From IMG/VR virus record IMGVR_UViG_3300013947_000002, positions 1-64,000 of that record: DNA of 64,000 nucleotides; one strand, 5' to 3'. The translations under genes and the position numbers were made by a program. The notes under the pieces were generated by a model. That model saw only the letters and a program-made list of their open reading frames with translations, was not told where the DNA came from and ran no database searches. This stretch comes from a virus. This document shows positions 18,766-60,151 of the stretch, piece after piece. Position 1 is the stretch's first letter; the number at the start of each line of letters is the position of its first letter.

Positions 18766-19697
18766 TTAGCCGGTTACAGTAACCTCGAAATAACCAACGA
18801 CAGGAACGCCACCATCAGCGCCCTTGAGCGTTGCAGAGATATGAGCCGTGCCAGCCGCCTTAGCGGTCACAACGCCCTTAGCGTCAACAGATGCATAGGT
18901 GTCGCCATCTTCAACCGCAAAGGTAAAGTTGGAGTTGTCCATAATCTTAGGCGCTTTATTGCCATCAAACAGGACATAGCAAACAGCGGTCTGAGTACCC
19001 TGAGCGGCTAGAGACATGTCAGCGTCCTCAAATGCAATAGCCTTGACTTCGTTCTGCCACTTTGCACCAAAGATTTCTTCGGTCATAGTGCCATAGTAGG
19101 ACTCGGATTCGCAAGAATCGGTGTTGTCAACTGCTAGAGCAGAGCCAGACAGAGAAACAGTGGCTGCGGAAGTTGCGGTCAAATTGAGGTCTTGAGCACC
19201 ATCAAGCTGTAGTCTGGGAATATCAGTAATCAGACGGCCAATCTTCGTTGCATTGTTCGTGGTGAAAATATCTGCATTGAACAGGTCGTTCAGAATGATG
19301 ACGTGAAGCTCATCAGGGACGTAGTCAACAGGAATAATGATGCTATCTGCATTGGCGTTCTGATAGAAATACATAACACAATACTTCTCACCAGCCTGTG
19401 CATTAGGAATAGCCATAGTATAAGTGCCAGTAGATTCAGTGATAGTACCAACAGAATAGTCGGCTTCACCGGGTTTACGATACCAGCCGATTAGAGAGCC
19501 TGCAACTGCGGACGGGGACTGTGGTAGAGTGACCTGACCAGCCGTAGCAACGGTAAGCTCATTCTGATAAACACCAAGACCGCCTTTGGTTAGGTCAACG
19601 CCTAGATTAGCGGCAATATACTCAAGCTTGAAGCAAGAGTCAGTAATCTGAACAGTAAGACCGGAATCATGGTAATATTTACCGATTAGTGCATTGC
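18766..19697 (-). CDS. major tail protein, exon 2 (C-terminal Ig-like Big_2-type domain)
   Basis: The frame stays open upstream of the track ORF as far as 19707, reading ..ALIGKYYHDSGLTVQITDSCFKLEY... The C-terminus 'DAKGVVTAKAAGTAHISATL..VTVTG' is Big_2-like. Confidence 0.65.
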
Positions 19698-20149
19698 CTA
19701 TTATATTTTATACCAAAAAAAATGGCATGAAATATTTTGTATTCATATTGGGTCGCAACGCCAATATCGACTTACTATCACTAGCAGTCTGCTCATGTTT
19801 TCACATGAGAGTAGAATATATGTTCACCCTATTTAATAGGGGTCGGATTTTTCCTCCTCCATACGCTTGAGGTTCTACTTCTCCCACAAGGAGATATTCG
19901 TTGAAAGTTTCCCATGTATATTATATCATATTACTATAAATATGTCAATATATTTAGGGATTTCTCTGCTAAACACCCATTTTTATCGGCATAGACTATT
20001 TAGGATTTGACCATGTAGTCATCCCACAACTTTTTTCTACTTTCGCAACCATTCAGCTTGTCGTTTCCAACTACTGTTTAGGTGTGTGGGCTTTAGGGAT
20101 TCAAAGCATTTAACCCGAAGTCATACGCTGATTACTCAACGTAGAGAGC
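19698..20149 (-). mobile_element. ORF-less group I intron in the major tail gene (boundaries +/- ~8 nt)
   Basis: About 450 nt with no ORF. It shares near-identical blocks with the MCP intron: 19968-19980, 20000-20014 and 20090-20114 match 25877-25891, 25900-25914 and 25996-26020. Confidence 0.65.
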
Positions 20150-20291
20150 AATTATTACCCTTACCACCGCGAATTTCTTCGCTAGAAATAGTGAAACCAA
20201 AGGTTGATTCGGTCAAAGTCTTAGCGAAGCCAATGATATTCTGACCTTTTAGGAGAATAGCATCGCCAACGCCAGCTAGGAATTTTCTCAT
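20150..20291 (-). CDS. major tail protein, exon 1
   Basis: Hand translation from ATG 20289-20291 (AGGAGG RBS) gives MRKFLAGVGDAILLKGQNIIGFAKTLTESTFGFTISSEEIRGGKGNN, then runs into a stop at 20136. Below the 60-aa track cutoff. Confidence 0.65.
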
Positions 20292-20305
20292 ATAGAATTT
20301 CCTCC

Positions 20306-30799: not shown

Positions 30800-30938
30800 C
30801 CTCCTTTCTTTGTTTTATATTTTTGAGTGTTTTTATTTTCGGCTTTTGATTAAGTCTAGTTGGAACTTGGATTTCACTAAACCCTAATAGCGCCTCCACA
30901 ACAACATACCAACATAGCCGTTGCTTCATAGGTAAATA

Positions 30939-33604: not shown

Positions 33605-33639
33605 ATTCTCATTCCTTTCAATTTCCAAATATAACAAAA

Positions 33640-34441
33640 CGGCCAGCCCACACAGAGCCAGCCGTTCGTTTATTTCATTTATTCAGTTGTCAAGGTTCAT
33701 ACTGTGATACCCTATCGCTAGGGGCATACGGCGTTTCGCCTTTAGTTGAACAACAGTTCCCATTGAGTTGGGCTTATTGTAGATATGAGGCCGTAGCCTC
33801 CGTCACCTCCTTTCGTCAATTATGCTTCGGATAAACCAGTGGATAATTCAAGAGAAAGTGACCTCCCTTCGGATATTCATAGCCGCCAATGAGTAGTAGC
33901 GACAGGCAGTTTCAGTATGTGCCTAGATACAAGCATTTCGTCAAAGCTCTTACTTGTCAAGCGCCATCAAGCATCTAGCGCTACTCACTGTTATGTTTTA
34001 ATCACGGCTAAGACTCGCTTGGTGTTACCGCCAATTTGGTCTTATTTAATCCCTCATCCCATGCACACGGGAACCGCAGTGCGCCTCATCTTATTTCACC
34101 CACGCATGGCGCTATGTTGGGAAATATGGTGCAATGGGTCTTAGATGTCTGCTCATCTCGCCTTTGCCTACTTATAGCAGAATCACCTGATATTTCTTTG
34201 CCGCATATCAGAAGCGTTTTTGAATATACGGTTTTCATCGTTGCCTTATGGTATACCGCAAACCTTCGATAAGCGTCCACATATCACTCATAGGCAACCG
34301 AGCCATATGCTTCATACGTTCGTATAACACACCTGTTGCTATACGCCTATCATCAAGGATAGGATTTTCGATACTATATTGACGTAGCCCGCCACAGCCA
34401 ACGTCATGCTCGTATTAGGCTCCACTGAATTGTGGATTCAC
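33640..34441 (-). ncRNA. candidate ~0.8-kb structured ncRNA or long leader of the packaging/late operon
   Basis: No credible ORF on either strand. A consensus promoter lies at its 5' end. Contains tetraloop hairpins (33787-33800 GAGGC-UACG-GCCUC; 33710-33723 CCCUA-GCGA-UAGGG). G+C is well above that of other spacers. Confidence 0.5.
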
Positions 34442-34447
34442 GGCTCG

Positions 34448-34476
34448 ATTATATTCAACCCTACTAGATGCGTCAA
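34448..34476 (-). promoter_or_regulatory. sigma-70 consensus-like promoter
   Basis: The minus strand reads TTGACG-17 nt-TATAAT. Confidence 0.7.
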
Positions 34477-34529
34477 TCGCCCCGCAAGCATGATTGACCA
34501 GCCGTAGCTATCACCTAGTAGAGAATGAA

Positions 34530-37415: not shown

Positions 37416-38426
37416 CCTTTAATACCGTCTCTTTCGAGATACTTTAACACCACTCTAAGCGGTCGGAGTAGACTATCTCTTCATCTCAATGAGATGGATG
37501 GCACTTCGCAAGTAGGAATTTCACCTACAAGCTACACTGAAAACAGTTAGTCGTTACAGCTTCAAATGTTTGATATTTTAATTTTCTTGATAACCAAATA
37601 TCCAATCCTTATGGGTTTTATTTCGTCCGTGTAACACTCTGTCAATACAGGAATAACTTAAATTGCGGTCTTTTGCAAAATTTCTAATATTCACAAATTC
37701 TACATATTCGCCAGTTTTTAAGTTTCTTCCCCAACACGCCTTTTCGTGCGCCCTAGATGAATTGTCATGCAGGGTGAGCCATCTACAATTTTCTGGACAA
37801 TAATCACCATGTGGATTTATTCTGTCGATAGTCAAATCTTCTTGATAACCATTGGATAACGCCCAATCTCTGAATGTTTCATAAGAATTTAACCACTCGT
37901 CACAAACCGTAATACCCTTTGCTCCATAATCCGCATAGCTACGAACGTTAGGATTATAGCAACGCGACTTCATATTTGACCACGTCCTATAAAGTTTGCT
38001 TCGATTGCCAACTATCGCACCACCAGACTCTCCATGACGAGTTTTGTTCTGATGAACTCTCTCAAGTCTTAAACATCCACAAGAACGAATTGGTTTATAC
38101 TGCTGGACTAATTTGTATTTAACAACCTCGACAATGTTGCCGCAATCACACTTGCATACTACAAGTAATTTACCTTCTTTATTTCTTTTGTCTGGTAATT
38201 CAACAACCGTCAATTTTTCAAATTTATCGCCTATCTTAATTTCATTTGATCTCACACCTAAACCTCCTTTCTTTTATGATAACATCAAACATTCGCTTGC
38301 CACGGTATTGCCATGCGCTCATGCGTTTAGGGTTTTACCGTTAGCACGGCATATGCCGCACACCCTACATTTGTAGGTTCACCATCATTCACATCATATG
38401 TCACCATATGAGTGGACTATCGTTTA
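37416..38426 (-). mobile_element. group I intron (HNH endonuclease-bearing) in the RNA polymerase gene
   Basis: 1011 nt. The exon 1 nucleotide before it is U and the last intron nucleotide is G. Splicing in phase 0 joins ..KNNQVID|FAKTLWK... The 5' part has hairpins and a 'CCGUGCUAAC' block like phage IA2 introns. Confidence 0.65.
37578..38255 (-). CDS. HNH homing endonuclease
   Basis: 'LYRTWSNMKSRCYNPNVRSYADYGAKGITVCDEW..F..W' and 'IDRINPHGDYCPENCRW', plus a C-terminal HTH-like 'NIRNFAKDRNLSYSCIDRVLHGR'. GTG start with an AGGAGG RBS. Confidence 0.8.
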   Translation of the reverse strand: MRSNEIKIGDKFEKLTVVELPDKRNKEGKLLVVCKCDCGNIVEVVKYKLVQQYKPIRSCGCLRLERVHQNKTRHGESGGAIVGNRSKLYRTWSNMKSRCYNPNVRSYADYGAKGITVCDEWLNSYETFRDWALSNGYQEDLTIDRINPHGDYCPENCRWLTLHDNSSRAHEKACWGRNLKTGEYVEFVNIRNFAKDRNLSYSCIDRVLHGRNKTHKDWIFGYQEN

Positions 38427-40325
38427 ATCTATAACTTGATTATTCTTCATTGTCAACCAAGCGATAACCTTGATTTGTTCCTCCGTCATCTTACCGCCAT
38501 TAGCGTTTTTTACCTTCGAAATTGCATTACTGATAGGGCCGATTGAGCCGCCTGTATATGCTGTACTTACACCTTCATATAGCCTGTCTGCGTCGATAAT
38601 ACCACCACGAGCTTTTTTAAGGTCATATGACAGCGGAACAATCCCTTGCATATTGCGCTTTGCTACAGTTGTTAGCGTCTTATCCTTGACAACTAAAGAA
38701 ATATCTCCGTCAAAATCTTGCTGCAAGATACGGCTAATCATGTCATGACAACTAAAATAAACACACTTTGTCCCACCCAACCATTTATCAGTCAATTCAT
38801 TTCGCTTGTTGACACGAACGGCGTGTTCTTGGTATAGGTGCGGACTTCTCAGACAATCAAGCTCGTCGCCATCCTTGAATTGATTAGTATATACTTCACC
38901 ATTCTCAAGTAATCCAGTTGGGAATTGTTCACCCTTGAATAACCACTCACAGAACGCCACAGGGTCAGGTGAGATGAACAAGTATTTGCCATTGATTCTC
39001 AATCTACCGCCTTTTGCTTGTTTGACAAGACTTTTTTTAGTTTGCTTTAATATTTCCCGATTGTAAACATCCTTGAATAATTCTGGATAAATCGTCAACG
39101 CCTCTTGCATGGCTGTTTTTGTCTGATTATACTCAGTTGCCCCAAGCAATCTCATCGTTGTTTGATAGTCACGCCCAACACTGTCAATTTCATCTACTGT
39201 CTTCGCGATAAGCCGCTCAATTTCATTGTCGGTCATATCGCTCAATGATTGTAGCATCTGATAATTGATTCGAGCCTTTGGGATATAATCCTCCTCGACT
39301 TTGCAGCAACCGAAGTGACAACCATAACTCTTAAAGTTCGACTTGTAGCAGAACCAGCTAGGGTAGAATTTGTACAGCTTAAACATTGATTTCGTTAGGA
39401 TATACTGAATATCATCTTCAATGATTTTCCATTCCTTTCCATATATATCCGTAACAGACCAATCATCAGCGGAACAATATTCTTTGAGCCATCCTCTAAA
39501 ATCAAAGTAGGACACCAACCCCTTTATCCACGGGCCGCGCACGATTTGCGTCTTGAATCCGGGCTTACAACACATGCCCCACCCGTCAGTTTCAGCTATA
39601 ACCGTCTCTGATACTTTGCGCGTAATGCTATAATCTGTATAATCAATAAAGTCCGACTCGGCAGTTACCGGCATCTCAAAATCATCCACCACTATACACC
39701 GGTCTATATCAAAATCGTCCATTCTGTCTGTTGCAGATGCCATAAGGCTCTTATAGCTCAACAGCTTGTTTTCATTCATACCGCCCTGAGCGTTAATTGA
39801 ATCGATGGTTAATCCGCACATGAGCGTCTGCTCAACTTCATTATAGTCTTTTTCCCTAACGGCCATAAACCGCTTTGTGCGTATCATGCCAGCGCCGCAT
39901 GAGTAGAAAATGTAATGCTCGCCTTTGTAATTGAAACCATTGTGAATGATGCTATTAAGAATCTCAAAAAAGAACACGTTGACAATGATTATTTTGTCGC
40001 TACGCTCGAACGTCTTGATTCCTAGACTTCGAGTCAACTCAGAACAGAATAGATTGATGATTGTCTTGTCTTTTACTGCGTCTGGATTGAGTTCTCTAGT
40101 AATATTATCTTCGAGAGATTTTTTAAGCAATTTGACAAGTTCGTCTTTATGCTTTTTAATAACACGATTGATAGATGAGACACGCCATTTGCGATTTTGC
40201 CCATCTTTTTCTCGCATACGCAATGTATATAATTTAACAAGACGATTATGAATGGCTTGTTCATCCGATGTATAGAAAGCATCTGTATTGATGGAGGGGA
40301 TGAAGCAAAACTCTGTTAATGGCAC
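38427..40325 (-). CDS. YonO-like single-subunit RNA polymerase, exon 1
   Basis: 'LDCLRSPHLYQEHAV' and 'QQDFDGDISLVV', the D.DGD metal-binding motif of two-barrel RNAPs and RdRP-like enzymes. GTG start with an AGAGGTGA RBS. Confidence 0.7.
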
Positions 40326-47218: not shown

Positions 47219-47618
47219 ATTATTTCCTTTCTGTAACAATTTTGTAATGTTGGGACGTTCGTGGGTCTCCACTGGGACTTTGCGTGACGCTTTTATAGAA
47301 ATACTATATTAGTATCAGCGAACGTCCCAGTCCGCCCCATTATCTAATTATACTATATTTTGATTGGCTATTTGTTAATAAATTGTAAATTATGTCATAG
47401 ATTATTGGATTTACCGATTAAGTAAAATAGCAATCGTTATAAGGTGTGTGGTTTGATTTATTTTTTTTATCATGCTTTACAGGGTATGTGATTTGTAGTG
47501 CTACATACCATTTTCATCCATTTTTACCAGTTTCATCCATATCCCAGCCCCCGTCCTGGAAAATGCTGGCATCTTGAAAAACACCTGAAAATAGCACTTT
47601 GCAGGCGTATCGGCGAAG

Positions 47619-47647
47619 TTGTCCACTTTTCCACAGGTTTATCCACA
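47619..47647 (+). promoter_or_regulatory. cluster of three co-oriented DnaA-box-like 9-mers
   Basis: TTGTCCACT (47619), TTTTCCACA (47627) and a perfect TTATCCACA (47639). Confidence 0.5.
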
Positions 47648-48433
47648 AGTTGCCAAGTGGTAACTCAAAAATCCAGATTCTGGTATCAAAATCGATATCC
47701 AAAATTTTGATATATAACGCGTGTTATATTACACGGATCGCATTTTTAGTAAACACAATTCACCTATTTACTCCAAGTAAATACCTATTACCATCATATA
47801 AATAATTATTATATCCACGTCAATAAACATTTACTTAAAATAAACATATACTATATCCTGCAATATAACCTAATATACCGCACTAGATGTTATACTATTG
47901 TAACTATTGTAATAAGTATATCATATCACTATTTTTATCAATACAATATATCGATAAAAAGTTAGTATAGTCAATATCGATATAAATATACTGATTGATA
48001 ACAAGAATCATTCTCATATGTATAATAATACAGTATATACATAGCATACTCATAGTCAATAGCGCACATTCTAACTTTTTTATAGTATAATGGCCGCCTT
48101 TACCTATAAAACAGTGAATATTGTAACTGTATAAAAACTGTATAACGGAATAAAAAGATCAGGCATATAAAAACACGCCTGCACATAAAAACGGCATCAC
48201 AGGACTATTATAGCTTTTTGTCCAGTCCAGCTATCATATACTATATAAATAAGAGATAGCCGTTAGTCAATTTATACAATTCAAACGCTTGTAATTTGTG
48301 CAAAATGTACTATTGACTTTTGCAGCGTTCTGGTATATCATATCGCAGCAGTGACGCGGGGAAGGCCGGCGAAATATCCGGCAAACCGCTAAAATAAACA
48401 AAACAATCACTTAAAAATTTTACAATATGCCGA

Positions 48434-48462
48434 TTGACAAAAAGAAATTTATCGGATATACT
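48434..48462 (+). promoter_or_regulatory. sigma-70 promoter
   Basis: TTGACA-17 nt-TATACT, about 50 nt upstream of the gene at 48511. Confidence 0.65.
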
Positions 48463-48510
48463 CAAGGCACGATAAACAACTACAACAAAACATTTTAGGA
48501 GGAACAAAAA

Positions 48511-50416: not shown

Positions 50417-50537
50417 CTTTGCTCCCCTATGTTCCTATATCCCGGCATAGTTCGCACCGTGTAAAGCCGCCAGAGCCGTCATAATGGCATTGTACAATAT
50501 GCCTAAAATGGACGACCATTTTTTATGCAATTTTTTG

Positions 50538-50566
50538 TTGACATATGGCGCACGATCTGCTATAAT
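50538..50566 (+). promoter_or_regulatory. consensus sigma-70 promoter
   Basis: TTGACA-17 nt-TATAAT. Confidence 0.7.
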
Positions 50567-50572
50567 CAAAGT

Positions 50573-50806
50573 GACCTAGGGAAGCACCTATGAGGAGGGG
50601 GAGGTCGACCATGAGTTAAAGGCGTTTAACTGAATTACCAGCGGCTTCCAATCACCAGATTTTCCCAGCTATGCTTTAGCCAAGTGAAGCAATAAATCGA
50701 GGCGAAAAATCCTCACGCATATGACCTTACAATTTTTCACATTTTCCCCAGCAATATACAGTACATATACCTGCTCGGCGCGGCAAAAATCGAGCAGGGT
50801 TTTTTC
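50573..50806 (+). ncRNA. candidate ~230-nt sRNA with its own promoter and terminator
   Basis: Lies between the consensus promoter and an intrinsic terminator (stem 50770-77/50791-98 plus a T run). The only ORF is ATG-AGT-TAA behind GAGGAGGGGGAGG. Helices GGAAGC/GCTTCC and GTTAAA/TTTAAC can form. Confidence 0.55.
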
Positions 50807-51533
50807 GTGTACGCGTGTGTGGATTAGGCCAAGCGGATTTCCCCCAGTAATATATGCGTATATATGATTGCGGCGCGGCGCAGGGACGGCTCAGGACAGG
50901 CGTGGAGGCTCGAATCGACCGTGGGCATAATCTGCCTAGGGTGGATGTAAACATGGCTCAAATCGGCACGAGCTGGCTGTGGTGGCTATGATATAATCTT
51001 GACGTAATCTGCGCTTAAAACTCGCCTATCTCATATCGGCGCAAAAAGCAAAATCTTGTGTTATCCATTCAGAACTCGGAATAAATGACAACAACACATT
51101 ATTTTACGACGGAAAAATGTGTGAATGTATAAAAATCTCCTACGAAAAAGTGTCATATGTGTGTGAATATTCATATGAAAAATGTGATTAGTGCAACTTT
51201 CATACTAATATAAATCGTGATATGTGCAAGAAAGTATGGTGATGTATATATGCGCATTGCCGATAAATACATATATCTACGTCATGCGTATTGCTATCTG
51301 CATCATTTATGTGCATGATGATGTAGATGTATATGCATATGAATATGTGAATGGATATGCAGATGGATATATAACGTGTGTTATATATAGGTGAATATTT
51401 ATGTATGTACGAGCCGGAAATTTGAAATCCGTCTGCGAGATTGTATATATGAATGGAAAATCGAAACTCAAAATCGAGATTGATATTTTGCTTACATACA
51501 TACAAGCCCTAGAATTAAAATTGATTTTTCTAC

Positions 51534-55898: not shown

Positions 55899-56320
55899 TC
55901 GAAACAACGATTTATAAATGCGAATACTGTGGAGCGGAGTTTGATGATGAATATGAGGCGAATTGCCATGAATGGGTGTGTTGGTATGTCGACGTGAAGA
56001 AACGTGACGGTGGCAGCCTTAGATTTTATAAGGAAGATGGCACAGAAATCAAATTTGATGACCCTGGTTTCGTATGGGCTGAATTTGACGATGTGATGGC
56101 ATTTACAGTTGCTAATGATAGCGACGTAAAATTCGCTAAAGACTTCTTTGAATGGCATGGCTATAGCAATCCATTTCGAGCCATTGAGGACGATGAGCAT
56201 CCGAACTATTATGGTCTATGGTGGTTCGACCCAGATCTGCATTATGGTGGATGGGTGCGCGTAGACGACCAGATTAAAAAATGGGTAGATACTAAAAATA
56301 AATTTGTCAAAAGGGCTTGA
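55895..56320 (+). CDS. hypothetical acidic protein
   Basis: 141-aa ORF. Confidence 0.7.
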   Translation: MIETTIYKCEYCGAEFDDEYEANCHEWVCWYVDVKKRDGGSLRFYKEDGTEIKFDDPGFVWAEFDDVMAFTVANDSDVKFAKDFFEWHGYSNPFRAIEDDEHPNYYGLWWFDPDLHYGGWVRVDDQIKKWVDTKNKFVKRA

Positions 56321-56345
56321 CATATGCGATTCTATATGGTATAAT
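56317..56345 (+). promoter_or_regulatory. consensus sigma-70 promoter
   Basis: TTGACA-17 nt-(TGg)TATAAT. Confidence 0.65.
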
Positions 56346-56375
56346 CCAATTATCAAATGAACGGAGATAACGATT

Positions 56376-56531
56376 ATGCTTAATACTTATTTCAAAATTG
56401 GCGATTATATTTGCCGCGTTGACCGCTATGACCGAGAAACTGGTCTGTGGGGATATCGTTGTGACGATGTACCTGTGTTCAATGGCTGGGCTTGTGAAAA
56501 ATTTATTGAGATGAATAAAATTTGTAGTTGA
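56376..56531 (+). CDS. hypothetical 51-aa protein
   Basis: Hand-found ORF (MLNTYFKIGDYICRVDRYDRETGLWGYRCDD..) with a GGAGA RBS, lying behind the promoter. Confidence 0.45.
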   Translation: MLNTYFKIGDYICRVDRYDRETGLWGYRCDDVPVFNGWACEKFIEMNKICS

Positions 56532-56556
56532 CAAACAGCAAATCGTGTGGTATAAT
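56528..56556 (+). promoter_or_regulatory. consensus sigma-70 promoter
   Basis: TTGACA-17 nt-(TGg)TATAAT. Confidence 0.7.
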
Positions 56557-56653
56557 TAAGAAGCAATGAGGGAATTGGGAAGCCTGATTTGCGGCATTGT
56601 GAACCTCCTGAAAATATAGTCCTGAGCATGACGGTAAAACTGCTCGACAATAT

Positions 56654-56731
56654 GGTAGGGACGCCAATGTGGTATCGGCACCGCCCTTATAAGACGGAGA
56701 TAGTTTGGTTCGAATCCAACCCCTATCACCA
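56654..56731 (+). tRNA. tRNA-like gene, anticodon UAU (Ile-type) if functional, with encoded CCA
   Basis: 7-bp acceptor GGTAGGG/CCCTATC. T arm with GTTCGAATCC. Anticodon loop CUUAUAA. Irregular features: no U8, an A-C in the D stem, a C-A in the anticodon stem, and a bulge or mismatch in the T stem. Confidence 0.45.
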
Positions 56732-56764
56732 CGAAAAAATATAGATAATTAATGAGGCGATAAC

Positions 56765-57028
56765 ATGAAATTGTTCAAAGTATGGGTAGACAAGGTTGAC
56801 TATGACACCTATGATTCGTTTGTGTGTGTAGCAAATAGCGAAGAGGAAATTAGAAACAGTATCAGCGTAGATAGGTATAACAGTCGTGTTATACATTTGG
56901 ACGAGGGTGATGACAAGTATGAAACCTATGTCGCTTTTGAGGATTTTCAGGGCGAAATTCATATTGAAGAGGTAAATCTTGATGTAGATAAGCCATACAT
57001 TGTATGCGCAAGCTATAATGCTGGTTGA
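56765..57028 (+). CDS. hypothetical protein
   Basis: 87 aa with a GAGG RBS. Confidence 0.7.
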   Translation: MKLFKVWVDKVDYDTYDSFVCVANSEEEIRNSISVDRYNSRVIHLDEGDDKYETYVAFEDFQGEIHIEEVNLDVDKPYIVCASYNAG

Positions 57029-57037
57029 GGTGATAAT

Positions 57038-57376
57038 ATGAGACTATATTTCGACATCGATGACTCTTGGTATGAGGGCTATGATAGTTATGATTTTAGA
57101 AAAGACATTGAGTCTGGAATTGTAGAATCGATCACTAATCGTCTATTGTCGGAAGACAAATACAGTTTCGCCGAAGAAGAGGCACGACAAATTGTTAAAG
57201 AAAACAAAACCGAGATTATTGATAAGGTAGTGCAGACAGTCAGTGCTACAATTCTCAAAAAACAAGAAATCAAATTGCTTGCGCCGTCTCTGTCTGAACT
57301 AAAAAATGCTGATGCTCAGGTTGTCAAATATTTTGAGGAAATGGTTGACAAGGCTATTGCTAAGAGGTTTAAGTAA
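57038..57376 (+). CDS. hypothetical protein
   Basis: 112 aa with a GAGGTGA RBS. Confidence 0.7.
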   Translation: MRLYFDIDDSWYEGYDSYDFRKDIESGIVESITNRLLSEDKYSFAEEEARQIVKENKTEIIDKVVQTVSATILKKQEIKLLAPSLSELKNADAQVVKYFEEMVDKAIAKRFK

Positions 57377-57377
57377 T

Positions 57378-57626
57378 ATGGAACAATCTCCGCTAAAAGC
57401 TATACGCGCCCACTGCATCGAATGTAGTTGTGGCTCAACCAGCGAAGTCAAAAATTGCGTCATCCGTGATTGTGAGCTGTGGCCGTTTCGCATGGGCAAC
57501 AATCCATTCCGTACCCGCTCAATGACCGATGAACAGAAGCAAGCTGCGGCTGAACGGCTCAAATCCGCTCGTCTCGCTAAAAAATCTTCATTAAATAATG
57601 TAGAAAATTCTGAACAAGAAGATTAG
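57378..57626 (+). CDS. small Cys4 zinc-finger protein
   Basis: ATG 57378. 'CIECSCGSTSEVKNCVIRDC'. Confidence 0.6.
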   Translation: MEQSPLKAIRAHCIECSCGSTSEVKNCVIRDCELWPFRMGNNPFRTRSMTDEQKQAAAERLKSARLAKKSSLNNVENSEQED

Positions 57627-57792
57627 TAAGGTAAGTTGTAGTGTAAATAATAAAGGAAATTTTATTGATTATTAGTGTATGAATCTTAACGATTGGATTT
57701 GTTTACTTGCTGGAATCGGCTATTCATTGTTTATGTTTGTGTGTGGTGCAGCATGGGCAAGCGACGTGTTGAAAAAATAATTAAAATACCTC

Positions 57793-57821
57793 TTGATAAA
57801 TAAAATCAAATGTGGTATAAT
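57793..57821 (+). promoter_or_regulatory. sigma-70 promoter with extended -10
   Basis: TTGATA-17 nt-(TGg)TATAAT. Confidence 0.65.
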
Positions 57822-57827
57822 TGAGAA

Positions 57828-58830
57828 TGTAAAGATGATGGTGCTACGAAGCCCACAGAGGACACTATCCATGGAGTGCCGAGCTGGGGAATACAGGAGC
57901 AGTAGTAAATGGAGTGAGATGAACAGCCATCATTATATGCCATATGAGGTCTTGAATGCGAATGAGCCAATGGCTGAAATTGCTCATCCAGATTTGGAGT
58001 AGTATTCAAGATATAACCTTAGCATTGCTCGTGCGAGAGGCAAGCCAAGCTAACTGCATATCCTACGTGGAATGTCTGTCTTGGATGGAAAAGAGCGAAT
58101 TAGGGAACGTGCGTGAGATAAATGAGAGAAGCATAAAAGCGGGTCACAGTCGTGTGAAAGACCGTAATGCCAAGTAGGGCGCACCAGTCAATCTGTTCGG
58201 CATAATAAAGGGATTGGGGTTGACGATTATAGAATGGCACATCGGAAAGACGATGATAATATCCGACCGGATTTGAAGATAACCGTCAAATCTATATCAC
58301 GCCTGCACTGGGGTCTGCGCAGAGTTTGAGAAGCGGCAGATACAGACTAGAGAATTGGGGTCGCGCCCAATCGTGCCACGTTAGCATCCATGCAAAAACG
58401 TAACGTCGAAGGTGATATAAGGATGTTATGTAAACAGCATTCACGAGCCGATGCTAGAAGTAGCTATGAGGTAGGAAGTCGGCTTGAGATTGAATATGGA
58501 AGTGTAAGCTAACTGGATAAACCTCGCCAATTTGGTGAGATTGCAAGTTCGATTCTTGTCACTTCTATTCCCCCACATCCATCACGCTTCTGTTTAGCAT
58601 TGCAAGCGTACCACGATGGATGTATAGAAAAGTCTAAAATCCTAGCTTTGTAAGGCTGAACACAAGAATTGGTCACTTGTGAACGGTCTAGTTTATAAGT
58701 TATAATGCTAGTTGCCGAATAGTTGAAAGCTGACCACCTGACGCTATGAGGCAGCGCTCGCCACACTCCCGATTTTAAGATGGTTGCGCAACTGTAAATT
58801 CAATTTAGCCTGAATTTGTAAGGAGTGTGG
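57828..58830 (+). ncRNA. candidate ~1-kb highly structured ncRNA (GOLLD/ROOL-like class or novel)
   Basis: No credible ORF. Long-range helices: 57834-41/57927-34; 58576-83/58615-22 with a nested ACGCTT/AAGCGT; 58761-69/58822-30. Contains an embedded tRNA-shaped module. Preceded by a strong promoter. Confidence 0.55.
58498..58567 (+). other. degenerate tRNA-like module (possible attP core or RNA domain)
   Basis: Acceptor GGAAGTG/CACTTCT (7 bp). T arm GCAAG-TTCGATT-CTTGT. Anticodon-like stem CTCGC/GTGAG. No D stem, no U33 and no CCA. Confidence 0.4.
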
Positions 58831-58917
58831 CAATTCTATCAGGTCAATATGCGCATGAACATAGCGACTTGTTTTAATAAAATTTTATTAGAAATCGAAA
58901 GGAATTTATCAGGAACA

Positions 58918-59193
58918 ATGACAAAGAAGGAACTAATCAAGTATGTTGCTGGCTCGACCGAGCATACCATTAAGGACACAGAAGAAATTGTTGATGAATT
59001 TATCGACTATGTCAAGAATGCGCTGATTGAGCATGAGGATGTAACCATCCACGGCTTCGGCACATTCAAGACCAAGCTACGCGATGCTCGTACAGCTAGA
59101 AACCCCCAGACCGGTGAAACCATTGAAGTCCCTGCCAAGTATGCACTGGCATTTAAGCCGACAAGCACATTCAAGGCGGCTATCAATGAGTGA
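58918..59193 (+). CDS. HU-family histone-like DNA-binding protein
   Basis: 'MTKKELIKYVAG...VTIHGFGTFKTKLRDARTARNPQTGETIEVPAKYALAFKP' is a canonical HU pattern. Confidence 0.85.
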   Translation: MTKKELIKYVAGSTEHTIKDTEEIVDEFIDYVKNALIEHEDVTIHGFGTFKTKLRDARTARNPQTGETIEVPAKYALAFKPTSTFKAAINE

Positions 59194-59206
59194 ATAATCC
59201 TCCTGT

Positions 59207-59245
59207 TAAAAATCCCTATGGTCGAAAGATTGTAGGGATTTTTCT
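59207..59245 (+). terminator. rho-independent terminator
   Basis: Stem AATCCCTA/TAGGGATT followed by TTTT. Confidence 0.7.
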
Positions 59246-59256
59246 AAAAATAACCC

Positions 59257-59285
59257 TTGACAAATCGCCGCTGTGGTGCTATACT
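59257..59285 (+). promoter_or_regulatory. sigma-70 promoter
   Basis: TTGACA-17 nt-TATACT. Confidence 0.65.
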
Positions 59286-59314
59286 TAAACCATCAAATAA
59301 AGGAGCTGAATGAT

Positions 59315-60151
59315 ATGAACGAACTATTTATTATGTCGCTTAAAGCAAAGCATCGTAGTGAGGGTACCATTCGCGAATATACCAAGGCGATCGAGAACTG
59401 CTTGTCGTATGTCAAGAAGCCTGAAACCGACATCAAGCCGATTGACCTTGAGTTGTGGCAGTCCAGCATGAGCAATCTTAGCTCTGCATCCGTAGCACAG
59501 CGCACATCGGCTGTTCGCGAGTATTTCAAGTTCTTGTATCGCAATGAATTTATCAGTCGCAATCCTGCTGATATGCTTGAAGCGCCGAGTATCAAGAATC
59601 GTGAGCAGTCGGCTCTTGATGGAGAGCAGGTCAGAGCGATGATTAACGCCGCAACAAATCTGCGTAACAAGGCGATTATTACGATGCTGGCTCAGACCGG
59701 TCTTCGCATCCATGAGCTTGCCAATATCACGCTTGAGCAGTATCAGAGCCGCAATGGTAATGTGTTGGTCATTCGTGGTAAGGGTGATAAGGATAGGCTG
59801 GTTGGCCTGGCTGATGAGACGATCAAGCTGATTGATAGCTATATTGCTAATGAGCGCAAAGACGGCTGCGAATACCTGTTCGTCGGCAATCGCGGCAATA
59901 AGATGGACGGCAAGAACACCAGTGCTATGCTCAAGGTGTGCGCTAAGAAGGCTGGTATTGAGAATTGGGAGGAGTTGCATATCAGCAATCATACGATGCG
60001 CCGCACGTTTGCTACGATGATGTCCGAAGCCGACGTACCTATTGAGATAATTAGTAAGGCAATGGGGCACTCAGGTTTGGCTATCACGTCCAGATACATC
60101 AAGCGCACCGAGCAGAGAGCGGTCAATGCTATGGCTGTTATGAGTTTTTAA
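59315..60151 (+). CDS. tyrosine recombinase (Xer/integrase family)
   Basis: ATG 59315 (AAAGGAG RBS). Catalytic pattern 'TGLRIHEL', 'HTMRRTFAT' and 'GHSGLAITSRYI' (R..H..R..H..Y). Confidence 0.8.
   Translation: MNELFIMSLKAKHRSEGTIREYTKAIENCLSYVKKPETDIKPIDLELWQSSMSNLSSASVAQRTSAVREYFKFLYRNEFISRNPADMLEAPSIKNREQSALDGEQVRAMINAATNLRNKAIITMLAQTGLRIHELANITLEQYQSRNGNVLVIRGKGDKDRLVGLADETIKLIDSYIANERKDGCEYLFVGNRGNKMDGKNTSAMLKVCAKKAGIENWEELHISNHTMRRTFATMMSEADVPIEIISKAMGHSGLAITSRYIKRTEQRAVNAMAVMSF

Follow-up and report, generated by a model that had tools for sequence, protein, structure and literature searches.

Stable RNAs and functional spacers derived from tRNA precursors include the species 1 and 2 RNAs of phage T4 and the 3'ETS-leuZ and rtT of Escherichia coli. 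The 3' ends of the long non-coding RNAs MALAT1 and MEN-beta are likewise defined by tRNA-like elements (mascRNA). The GOLLD and ROOL types of phage RNAs, which lie beside tRNAs, constitute a long-standing puzzle. GOLLD possesses a universally conserved 3' region within one RNA, many members being longer than 800 nt (PMC12286853), and it can hold a tRNA in the linker between the variable 5' part and the conserved 3' part (PMC12286853; PMC5737381).

The DNA analysed in this study (the window) is a stretch of 64,000 nt (IMG/VR record IMGVR_UViG_3300013947_000002) from the genome of a human-gut phage, which encodes a portal protein and an integrase. Within it, the first-pass annotation had proposed that positions 57793-58917, directly preceding an HU gene (at 58918), specify a ~1-kb RNA, i.e. 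a member of the GOLLD or ROOL class, a new large phage RNA or a long structured leader of the HU gene. Distinct versions of the array that it contains, 37 in number and all from one clade of ~90-kb human-gut phages, were compared, and this comparison supports recognition of the stretch as a non-coding, structured, transcription-ready RNA locus linked to tRNAs. We consider it reasonably probable that the array is a polycistronic precursor of independent structured RNAs, whose tRNA or tRNA-like element would be the site where RNase P and RNase Z cut them apart.

Rfam was searched with the window (at the gathering threshold), positions 56300-59400 (E <= 10), 11 loci (gathering threshold) and 20 related arrays (E <= 1). 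In all of these searches, only tRNA, drum and RAGATH-33 were matched, and within 57793-58917 only tRNA, while no ribozyme, RNase P RNA, tmRNA, Y-RNA or intron was detected in the window, the 11 loci or the 20 arrays. The covariance models of GOLLD and ROOL matched neither the window at the gathering threshold, nor 56300-59400 even at E <= 10, nor the 20 related arrays at E <= 1, and blastn searches against GenBank phages gave no match for the array region. The setting corresponds to that of GOLLD and ROOL (a phage or prophage, near or including tRNAs), with tRNAs located inside the arrays of relatives.

Modular organization of the array

The features of the locus are listed below (coordinates of the window).

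57793..57821, + strand: sigma-70/sigma-A type promoter (TTGATA, 17-nt spacer, TATAAT, TG upstream; 11 of 12 matches)
57832..57940, + strand: module AB, with closing helix 57834-57841 / 57927-57934 (GAUGAUGG / CCAUCAUU)
57941..58096, + strand: module C, an optional slot
58097..58228, + strand: module D, a core module with outer helix GUGCGU / GCGCAC around a variable hairpin
58260..58425, + strand: module E, a 166-nt seven-helix fold without an Rfam match
58429..58497, + strand: module F, a conserved leader immediately preceding the tRNA slot
58498..58567, + strand: tRNA-like element, full-length match to the Rfam tRNA model (30.9 bits, threshold 29)
58575..58623, + strand: G2 hairpin, directly after the tRNA-like element and not followed by a U run
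58627..58757, + strand: module H, the core 3' module with several hairpins, holding the second GCUAUGAGG motif
58758..58838, + strand: module I, with an 11-bp closing helix (58760-70 / 58822-32) around two small hairpins
58839..58917, + strand: region Z, directly upstream of the HU gene and outside the RNA array proper
56528..56728, + strand: another unit built on the same plan, lying 1.1 kb upstream (consensus promoter 56528-56556, ~100-nt leader and tRNA-Ile(UAU)-like gene)

The arrays of the related phages are colinear (promoter, AB, C, D, E, F, tRNA slot, H, I and then the HU gene), the modules are optional, and the array length ranges from 494 nt to ~2,200 nt. One array is composed of the promoter, D, F and a tRNA only (L004), another of the promoter, E, F and a tRNA (L032), and a third of AB, D and H, without E, F or a tRNA (L020). 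Modules H and I are missing in several arrays (L004, L021, L087 and L015), and a homing-endonuclease gene is placed inside that of L022. Three relatives (L011, L012 and L014) have lost the entire array, which is thus dispensable. All module pairs were searched for covarying helices between them and none was found; the longest stretches of complementarity between modules (10 bp) do not vary, and their length is that expected by chance. Since the order is fixed and any subset of the domains may occur in relatives, the domains are not parts of one large fold.

These observations bear on the possibility that the stretch encodes a single large RNA of the GOLLD/ROOL kind, whose 5' and 3' halves would fold together, and perhaps multimerise, with the tRNA(-like) element in an internal linker. 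The context is the same as that of GOLLD (PMC12286853), i.e. a phage, tRNAs, ~1 kb and a central tRNA that separates a variable 5' part from a conserved 3' part, and no terminator was found inside the stretch. Against this stand the lack of any large-RNA model match mentioned above, the occurrence of the core modules in every combination (or none of them) and the lack of inter-module covariation, and the global fold implied by the first-pass annotation was not upheld. A universally conserved 3' region, as in GOLLD, is not a property of arrays in which H and I may be missing, and for ROOL neither a model match nor a supported global fold was obtained. We therefore regard a single large RNA as unlikely and favour a precursor of independent RNAs.

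An integron-like cassette array was also considered, an idea that came from the tyrosine recombinase encoded nearby; no common recombination-site motif was seen where modules join, and ordinary phage integrases are what the recombinase matches.

The families to which the modules belong appear to be new (relative to Rfam) and are restricted to one phage clade. Module F is absent from a more distant member of the clade (L121) and from unrelated phages sharing the upstream Zn-ribbon protein, while the cultured, distantly related Enterocloster phage PMBT24 has no tRNA, Rfam family or module F. An 18-nt F pattern retrieved five additional IMG/VR contigs, which are not otherwise similar to the window and were rejected as chance matches. 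The E pattern, searched in 185,579 reference genomes, gave one match, in a cyanobacterial metagenome-assembled genome, lacking all other features of E; as ~2 chance matches were expected, no prophage copy or host was found in this way.

Conserved structures and the tRNA slot

Module E comprises helix P1 (58260-64 / 58421-25), P2, a hairpin with loop AGAUAACCG, and P3 (58294-58300 / 58412-58418), which closes a four-hairpin junction, one hairpin of which has the invariant loop AGAGUUUGAGA. In the alignment of 44 sequences, 99.8% of bases at its 37 pairs are paired, and double changes were found at 11 pairs, compared with 4.6 +/- 1.5 in shuffles (0 of 500 reach 11) and at most 3 when the partners were slid; because all homologues come from one tight clade, the changes counted in this and the other modules did not arise independently, and the result of the shuffle test is not to be read as a probability. 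Some arrays carry a shorter, diverged paralogue of E with the same core fold, and with this paralogue included, double changes affect 13 of 37 pairs, over six of the seven helices. Many wobble pairs exist on the + strand only (e.g. three pairs of E have 18 U-G, 14 U-G and 15 G-U, respectively), which points to an RNA read from that strand.

Module F consists of a helix (58444-52 / 58478-86) with an inner hairpin (58453-64) and a purine-rich, invariant internal loop (58465-77; UAUGAGGUAGGAA). The 45 aligned sequences share 89% column identity and form 13 pairs, 3 of which are compensatory (thermodynamic z = -2.3). Each array has one copy of F, and in 29 of 36 arrays a tRNA predicted by ARAGORN begins 1-7 nt past it, whatever the identity of that tRNA. 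The slot next to F may be occupied by Leu-CAA, Leu-UAA, Phe-GAA, Gly-UCC or a tRNA-like element. The last position of F in the window is 58497, immediately before the first position of the tRNA-like element (58498), which is the abutment expected of a tRNA-punctuated precursor.

F also contains GAGG..GAAGUCGGCUU, which is reminiscent of CR-I/P4, a conserved region in RNase P RNA. Two assignments were tried and rejected: a divergent RNase P RNA formed by D-E-F (D and E may be absent from arrays, and models of RNase P RNA gave no match) and F as a hammerhead-type ribozyme (the core sequences are out of the required positions). The motif GCWAUGAGG occurs 3 times, always in the array region, yet three occurrences were also given by 9 of 100 shuffles, and it was not considered significant.

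The tRNA-shaped module that had been noticed by eye at 58498-58567 is recognized by RF00005 (30.9 bits) and has acceptor, D and T arms. Its acceptor stem is of 7 bp (GGAAGUG / CACUUCU, with G1-U72), the T arm (GCAAG-UUCGAUU-CUUGU) has a loop of the UUCRANY type, the discriminator is A, and CCA is not encoded. The anticodon arm (CUCGCCA-AUU-UGGUGAG) has a 7-bp stem and a 3-nt loop in place of the 5-bp stem and 7-nt loop of a tRNA, and the element therefore has no anticodon. Its thermodynamic z is -2.8. Identical copies are present in three independent metagenome assemblies (L077, L086 and L089), acceptor and T arms are common to this element and to a 74-nt tRNA-like class of L006, L017 and L013, and real tRNAs fill the same slot in relatives. 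The second tRNA-like element, reported 1.1 kb upstream, was confirmed at 56654-56728, where it scores 36.9 bits, has the anticodon UAU and includes an encoded CCA. The leader of that upstream unit is conserved in relatives, where it is followed by a tRNA-Ile(tat) detected by ARAGORN. In the window itself, ARAGORN found no tRNA and rejected both tRNA-shaped elements.

The three long-range helices that had been paired by eye were all recovered. The closing helix of AB (57834-41/57927-34) is nearly invariant in 28-32 arrays, with only two changes, both giving G-U pairs; the interior of AB is swapped among relatives (40-110 nt) and its thermodynamic z is not significant (-0.8), and its structure is weakly supported, by conservation. 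The helix 58576-83/58615-22 with its nested helix corresponds to the predicted minimum-free-energy hairpin G2 (z = -5.2, 0 of 200 shuffles as stable), which is specific to the lineage of the window. The helix 58761-69/58822-30 closes module I, for which RNAalifold predicted 23 pairs in 19 sequences, including 4 compensatory pairs (z = -3.3). In module H, 37 distinct sequences gave 36 RNAalifold pairs, 7 with compensatory changes. Module D has a second hairpin with the invariant loop CUGUUCGGCAUAAUAAAGG; in its 34 distinct sequences, the 30 RNAalifold pairs are 97% canonical and only 1 is compensatory, which is weak covariation support. The first half of module C (hairpin 57949-58012; z = -2.4 for 57941-58016) is lineage-specific, the second half (58015-58096) is common to a few relatives, and the slot receives different inserts in other phages, including a RAGATH-33 RNA (L005:3728-3840, 139.9 bits). 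The description of the whole stretch as highly helical thus holds in part: z values of -2.3 to -5.2 were obtained for F, the tRNA-like element, C1, I and G2, while those of AB, D, E and H were not significant, E being backed by covariation instead.

The same data may be confronted with the view that the locus is a decaying tRNA-gene island, composed of remnants of tRNA genes, spacers and scars of mobile elements, with no function of its own. Both tRNA-shaped elements of the window fail ARAGORN, that in the slot lacks an anticodon loop and could be a decaying gene, the content of the array is highly variable and deletable, and one array harbours a homing endonuclease. However, in five relatives (L005, L006, L022, L023 and L025), the identity to the window is 96-98% for E and 91-96% for F, and far exceeds that of the adjacent HU gene (74-80%), a lead of 15-20 points over protein-coding DNA next to the array. 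Moreover, compensatory and wobble changes maintain the helices, the diverged paralogue of E retains the core fold, and the promoter is near-consensus in every array. Decay is improbable in the light of these findings, which point to selection on the structures of E, F, H and I and favour the precursor of independent RNAs.

Transcription, the HU-gene side and coding potential

The consensus promoter noted at the head of the stretch is of the extended -10 type (TTGATA-17-TATAAT with TG), and it is conserved in front of every related array, in most cases with TTGACA as the -35 sequence. Promoter sites of such quality number 9 in the window, versus 0.02 expected. Judging from the sequence, transcription would start at ~57827 +/- 2. 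No terminator-like sites were found anywhere in 56300-59400.

The HU gene is on the same strand as the array, and read-through into it is likely. With no terminator found between the promoter and HU, the stretch might act as a long structured 5' leader controlling this gene, as the first-pass annotation had suggested. This is quite unlikely, considering that HU is preceded by the same 79 nt (region Z) in relatives devoid of the array, and that region Z itself contains a possible HU promoter (58856-58883; a weak match, 9/12) and a ribosome-binding site. Furthermore, tRNA genes (and the L022 homing-endonuclease gene) are situated in the middle of the supposed leader, and the content of the array varies ~five-fold while HU is constant.

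The claim that 57793-58917 is free of ORFs was sustained. The longest ORF of the array (85 aa, minus strand) is within random expectation, since the longest ORF of shuffled sequences has 78 +/- 23 aa and 83 of 300 shuffles match or exceed 85 aa. None of the 67-85 aa ORFs of the array matched Pfam, and no conserved ORF was found, as ORF positions are not kept across related arrays. Modules D, E and H have stops in all three + frames in every variant, variable columns are spread evenly by codon position (28/26/25), and length differences among module variants are not multiples of 3; a conserved frame, codon-position bias and indels in threes are thus all missing from the array. The G+C content, which had been remarked as higher than that of the true spacers, is 0.449 for 57828-58838 versus 0.413 for the whole window. 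Encoded small proteins or a role at the DNA level (replication origin or packaging site) are extremely improbable in view of these data and of G-U pairs on the + strand only, which favour RNA over duplex DNA, even though a GAGG is read 7 nt before the ATG of a 73-aa ORF at 57956 and origins are also ORF-free and can adjoin promoters and HU-type genes.

Possible processing and comparison with known RNAs

In the favoured model, host RNA polymerase would transcribe the whole non-coding operon from the near-consensus promoter into one precursor carrying, in this order, domains AB, C, D, E and F, the tRNA or tRNA-like element, and then G2, H and I. The tRNA-shaped element would serve as punctuation: cleavage by host RNase P would fall at 58497/58498, and the sequence past 58567 would be trimmed by RNase Z or exonucleases. 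The presumed products are a ~670-nt 5' RNA ending in the F hairpin, which would shield the new 3' end, and a ~270-nt 3' RNA or smaller pieces, possibly acting in trans. The half of a tRNA that is recognised by RNase P and RNase Z is the one with the acceptor and T arms. These arms are retained in the slot element of the window, whereas the anticodon is lost, which fits a role in processing rather than in decoding. The rule suggested by this case is that an anticodon-less tRNA-like element may be retained as a processing signal.

The many invariant unpaired bases of the modules (including most of those of E) suggest the binding of specific proteins or RNAs. A tentative and rather doubtful extension is that the array is an early-expressed RNA toolbox, in which the modules, freed by tRNA-type processing, would be separate effectors (e.g. 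decoys or inhibitors of host proteins involved in defence or RNA processing) that phages gain, lose and exchange like cassettes, with E possibly representing a new catalytic or ligand-binding class. The motifs not in Rfam 15 are E and its shorter paralogue, F, which is tied to the slot whatever the tRNA, and D, H and I; their weight is limited, since a single clade of uncultured human-gut phages is where they were found.

Among known systems, the RNAs of tRNA precursors in T4 and E. coli are alike in being non-tRNA RNAs co-transcribed with tRNAs; they are released by tRNA-processing enzymes, as may also happen here, and the T4 tRNA region hosts a homing endonuclease, as does the L022 array. 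They differ in being short and simple, whereas the array, with its putative processing, has at least five conserved multi-helix modules. MALAT1 and MEN-beta offer an analogy of mechanism only: a non-decoding tRNA-like element adjoins a long non-coding RNA on its 3' side, the 3' end of that RNA would be produced by RNase P, and a conserved structure (here F) precedes the cut. MALAT1 is eukaryotic and unrelated in sequence, and its 3' end is shielded by a triple helix, in contrast to F, a stem with an internal loop whose protective role is putative. No match to YrlA, which has a tRNA-like domain, or to another family of bacterial tRNA mimics was obtained for 56300-59400 at E <= 10.

RAGATH-33 (RF03102) and drum (RF02958) are similar as orphan structured RNAs from the same kind of phage context. 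RAGATH-33 is present only in relatives L005 and L019, between AB and D, and two copies of drum are present elsewhere in the window; neither matches 57793-58917, and D, E, F, H and I are motifs distinct from both.

GOLLD (RF01998) and ROOL (RF03087) resemble the array in being phage-encoded, ORF-free, hundreds of nucleotides long and located beside tRNAs. Unlike them, each having one conserved architecture that builds homo-oligomeric cages, the array is made of optional and independent pieces. It thereby offers a different layout of phage RNA next to tRNAs, which is more tractable because the natural variants constitute a presence/absence "deletion series" of small independent modules.

Modular layout of the array and its relatives

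With the neighbouring integrase as query, 26 IMG/VR contigs of about 50-100 kb were retrieved, and a gapped pattern of module E added 42 further loci from human-gut metagenomes. In its portal protein, the phage shares 45% identity with Enterocloster bolteae phages. The modules of the array (57793-58917, +) were absent from GenBank phages, 185,579 reference genomes and the cultured Enterocloster phage PMBT24, and therefore the locus is confined to a single uncultured clade of gut phages; no host emerged from the search of the reference genomes.

Among the relatives, the interval between the same two flanking genes varies from 166 nt to 2.2 kb, and the 37 distinct arrays from 494 nt to about 2.2 kb, a range that leaves out three arrays whose extraction started at an upstream look-alike promoter. 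BLAST and MAFFT comparisons revealed a mosaic of colinear blocks, each present or absent, in the order: promoter, AB, optional slot, D, E, optional 286-nt block, F, tRNA slot, optional further tRNAs and blocks, H, I, optional blocks, the 79-nt Z and the HU gene. The optional slot after AB holds module C in the window, a RAGATH-33 RNA in the related locus L005 and other inserts elsewhere. All kinds of module combinations were found.

Examples of module combinations in related loci
L004: promoter-D-F-tRNA-Leu only
L032: promoter-E-F-tRNA
L020: AB-D-H, without E, F and tRNA
L011, L012, L014: deletion; Z alone remains

In the last three loci (interval 165-167 nt), the opening ~30 codons of a 109-aa gene (complete in L016 and L024) run straight into the final segment of the array, ahead of HU. 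The RAGATH-33 RNA (RF03102, 139.9 bits; L005:3728-3840, between AB and D) also occurs in L019. Just 3' of tRNA-Leu within the array of L022 lies a 185-aa ORF with HNH_3 and NUMOD1 domains behind a good ribosome-binding site, a free-standing homing endonuclease inserted into the non-coding RNA/tRNA array.

Secondary structure of the modules

The sequence bears all three helices previously paired by eye. The first, which closes AB, persists in 28-32 arrays and varies only by wobble-preserving changes; another closes module I, and the third is a very stable lineage-specific hairpin (z = -5.2). For E (58260-58425), RNAalifold, applied to 44 distinct sequences of three sequence types, gave 37 pairs in seven helices with 99.8% of cells paired. 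Eleven pairs are altered on both sides versus 4.6 +/- 1.5 in shuffles (0/500 reach the observed value), and at most three when pairing partners are slid. A covariance-model search also found a shorter paralogue, E-mini (~140 nt, 68-70 bits; L016:4115-4257 and L022:3312-3454), alongside full-length E in the same arrays. It retains P1, P2 with the AGAUNACCG loop, P3 and the GAGUUKGAGAAG loop and is devoid of two peripheral hairpins. Together, E and E-mini show double changes in 13/37 pairs (4.1 +/- 1.5 expected) covering six of seven helices, in an alignment fitted to the covariance model and hence biased in favour of structure.

F has 13 pairs, three of them compensatory, at 89% column identity; compensatory pairs number seven in H, four in I and only one in D. 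The thermodynamic stability of AB, D, E and H is in itself unremarkable. Frequent G-U pairs on the plus strand only point to an RNA of that strand. Between phages that share only 74-80% identity in the HU gene, E and F are 91-98% identical. These covariation counts, from sequences of one clade and thus short of formal proof, are suggestive of structured RNA modules, whose many invariant unpaired bases suggest specific partners.

A search over all module pairs found no covarying inter-module helix, and the modules thus behave as independent units rather than domains of one fold. The GOLLD or ROOL membership raised in the first-pass annotation did not hold: the context is alike, but neither the Rfam models nor the single conserved architecture is shared, and a single RNA of that type is an unlikely explanation. 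D, E, F, H and I have no match in Rfam 15. Two drum RNAs (RF02958, gathering score 43) lie elsewhere in the window, in the structural/packaging gene block, one of them in the gap that separates the portal gene from the next large gene:

30822-30934 (-), drum RNA, 51.5 bits
34224-34320 (-), drum RNA, 43.3 bits

Four further stretches of 0.7-1.2 kb without an ORF of at least 100 aa (47273-48510, 19417-20305, 50458-51199 and 33638-34529) share no module with the array; two have a consensus promoter and one a drum RNA.

Module F and the tRNA slot

F occurs as a single copy per array, and in 29/36 arrays an ARAGORN tRNA begins 1-7 nt after it. This is Leu-CAA in most arrays, otherwise Leu-UAA, Phe-GAA, Gly-UCC or a 74-nt tRNA-like class with an ARAGORN "anticodon" of TAT or TAC depending on the array (one copy further along in L013 reads TGT). 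F is thus tied to the slot and not to one particular tRNA.

Both tRNA-like elements proposed for the window match the Rfam tRNA model (threshold 29 bits), with 30.9 bits at 58498-58567 and 36.9 bits at 56654-56728; ARAGORN called neither. The former belongs to the 74-nt class, sharing its acceptor and T arms; its anticodon arm pairs over 7 bp and leaves a 3-nt loop, CCA is not encoded, and the identical sequence was found in three independent assemblies. Judged by this predicted fold, the window lineage keeps a tRNA shape unable to decode. A decaying tRNA island, which could account for such a shape, is about as improbable as a GOLLD/ROOL-like RNA.

The 74-nt tRNA-like genes L006:5015-5088, L017:4991-5064 and L013:5016-5089 are near-identical outside the anticodon triplet (TAT, TAC, TGT), and their anticodon stem pairs poorly, a pattern that resembles drift in a tRNA mimic that does not decode. 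A second unit of the same design, at 56528-56728 (+), comprises a promoter, a ~100-nt conserved leader and a tRNA-Ile(UAU)-like gene with encoded CCA and mismatches in the D and anticodon stems; in related phages, ARAGORN reports a tRNA-Ile(tat) of 90-95 nt, unusually long for Ile tRNA.

Proposed expression and processing, and comparison with known systems

The consensus promoter noticed earlier (TTGATA-17-TATAAT with upstream TG, 57793-57821, +) stands at the head of every related array; the window holds nine sites of this kind in all (0.02 expected).

Near-consensus extended -10 promoters (TTGAYA-N14-TRNTATAMT)
19920, 41259 (-)
41460, 50538, 56317, 56528, 57793, 59257, 62090 (+)

Being host-type and near-consensus, the array promoter suggests that the host polymerase expresses the array strongly, and the nine sites suggest heavy use of host RNA polymerase. 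A 633-aa protein (38424-40325, -; PHROG 8308, E = 1e-200) also weakly matches a PHROG family annotated as RNA-dependent RNA polymerase and may be a phage-encoded two-barrel RNA polymerase; separately, PMBT24 carries a gene that bears the RNA-dependent RNA polymerase annotation.

No terminator-like site was found between the array promoter and the HU gene, as would suit an HU leader, a reading slightly less probable than a GOLLD/ROOL-like RNA. Least probable is a coding sequence or DNA-level element. As had been proposed, the interval bounded by the small gene that ends at 57780 and by HU at 58918 is devoid of credible genes, and G+C is raised (0.449 vs 0.413 for the window). The longest ORF (85 aa, minus strand) compares with 78 +/- 23 aa in shuffled sequence, array ORFs had no Pfam match, and their positions vary between relatives. 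D, E and H carry stop codons in all three plus frames of every variant and differ in length by non-multiples of three; the variable columns of E are spread evenly over codon positions (28/26/25).

The best-supported reading is a single polycistronic non-coding precursor, which would be made by the host polymerase, with the tRNA or tRNA-like element as the probable processing signal. Cut by RNase P at 58497/58498, the precursor would yield a multi-domain 5' RNA of ~670 nt whose last element, the F hairpin, stops some 11 nt short of the new 3' end, and a cut at the 3' side of the tRNA-like element would free G2-H-I (G2 being the hairpin that follows it). Among phage non-coding RNAs linked to tRNAs, the array is notable for its cassette-like modularity, the E family and the F-tRNA coupling. 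The processing proposed for the array has parallels in the spacers of tRNA operons and in the MALAT1-mascRNA pair.
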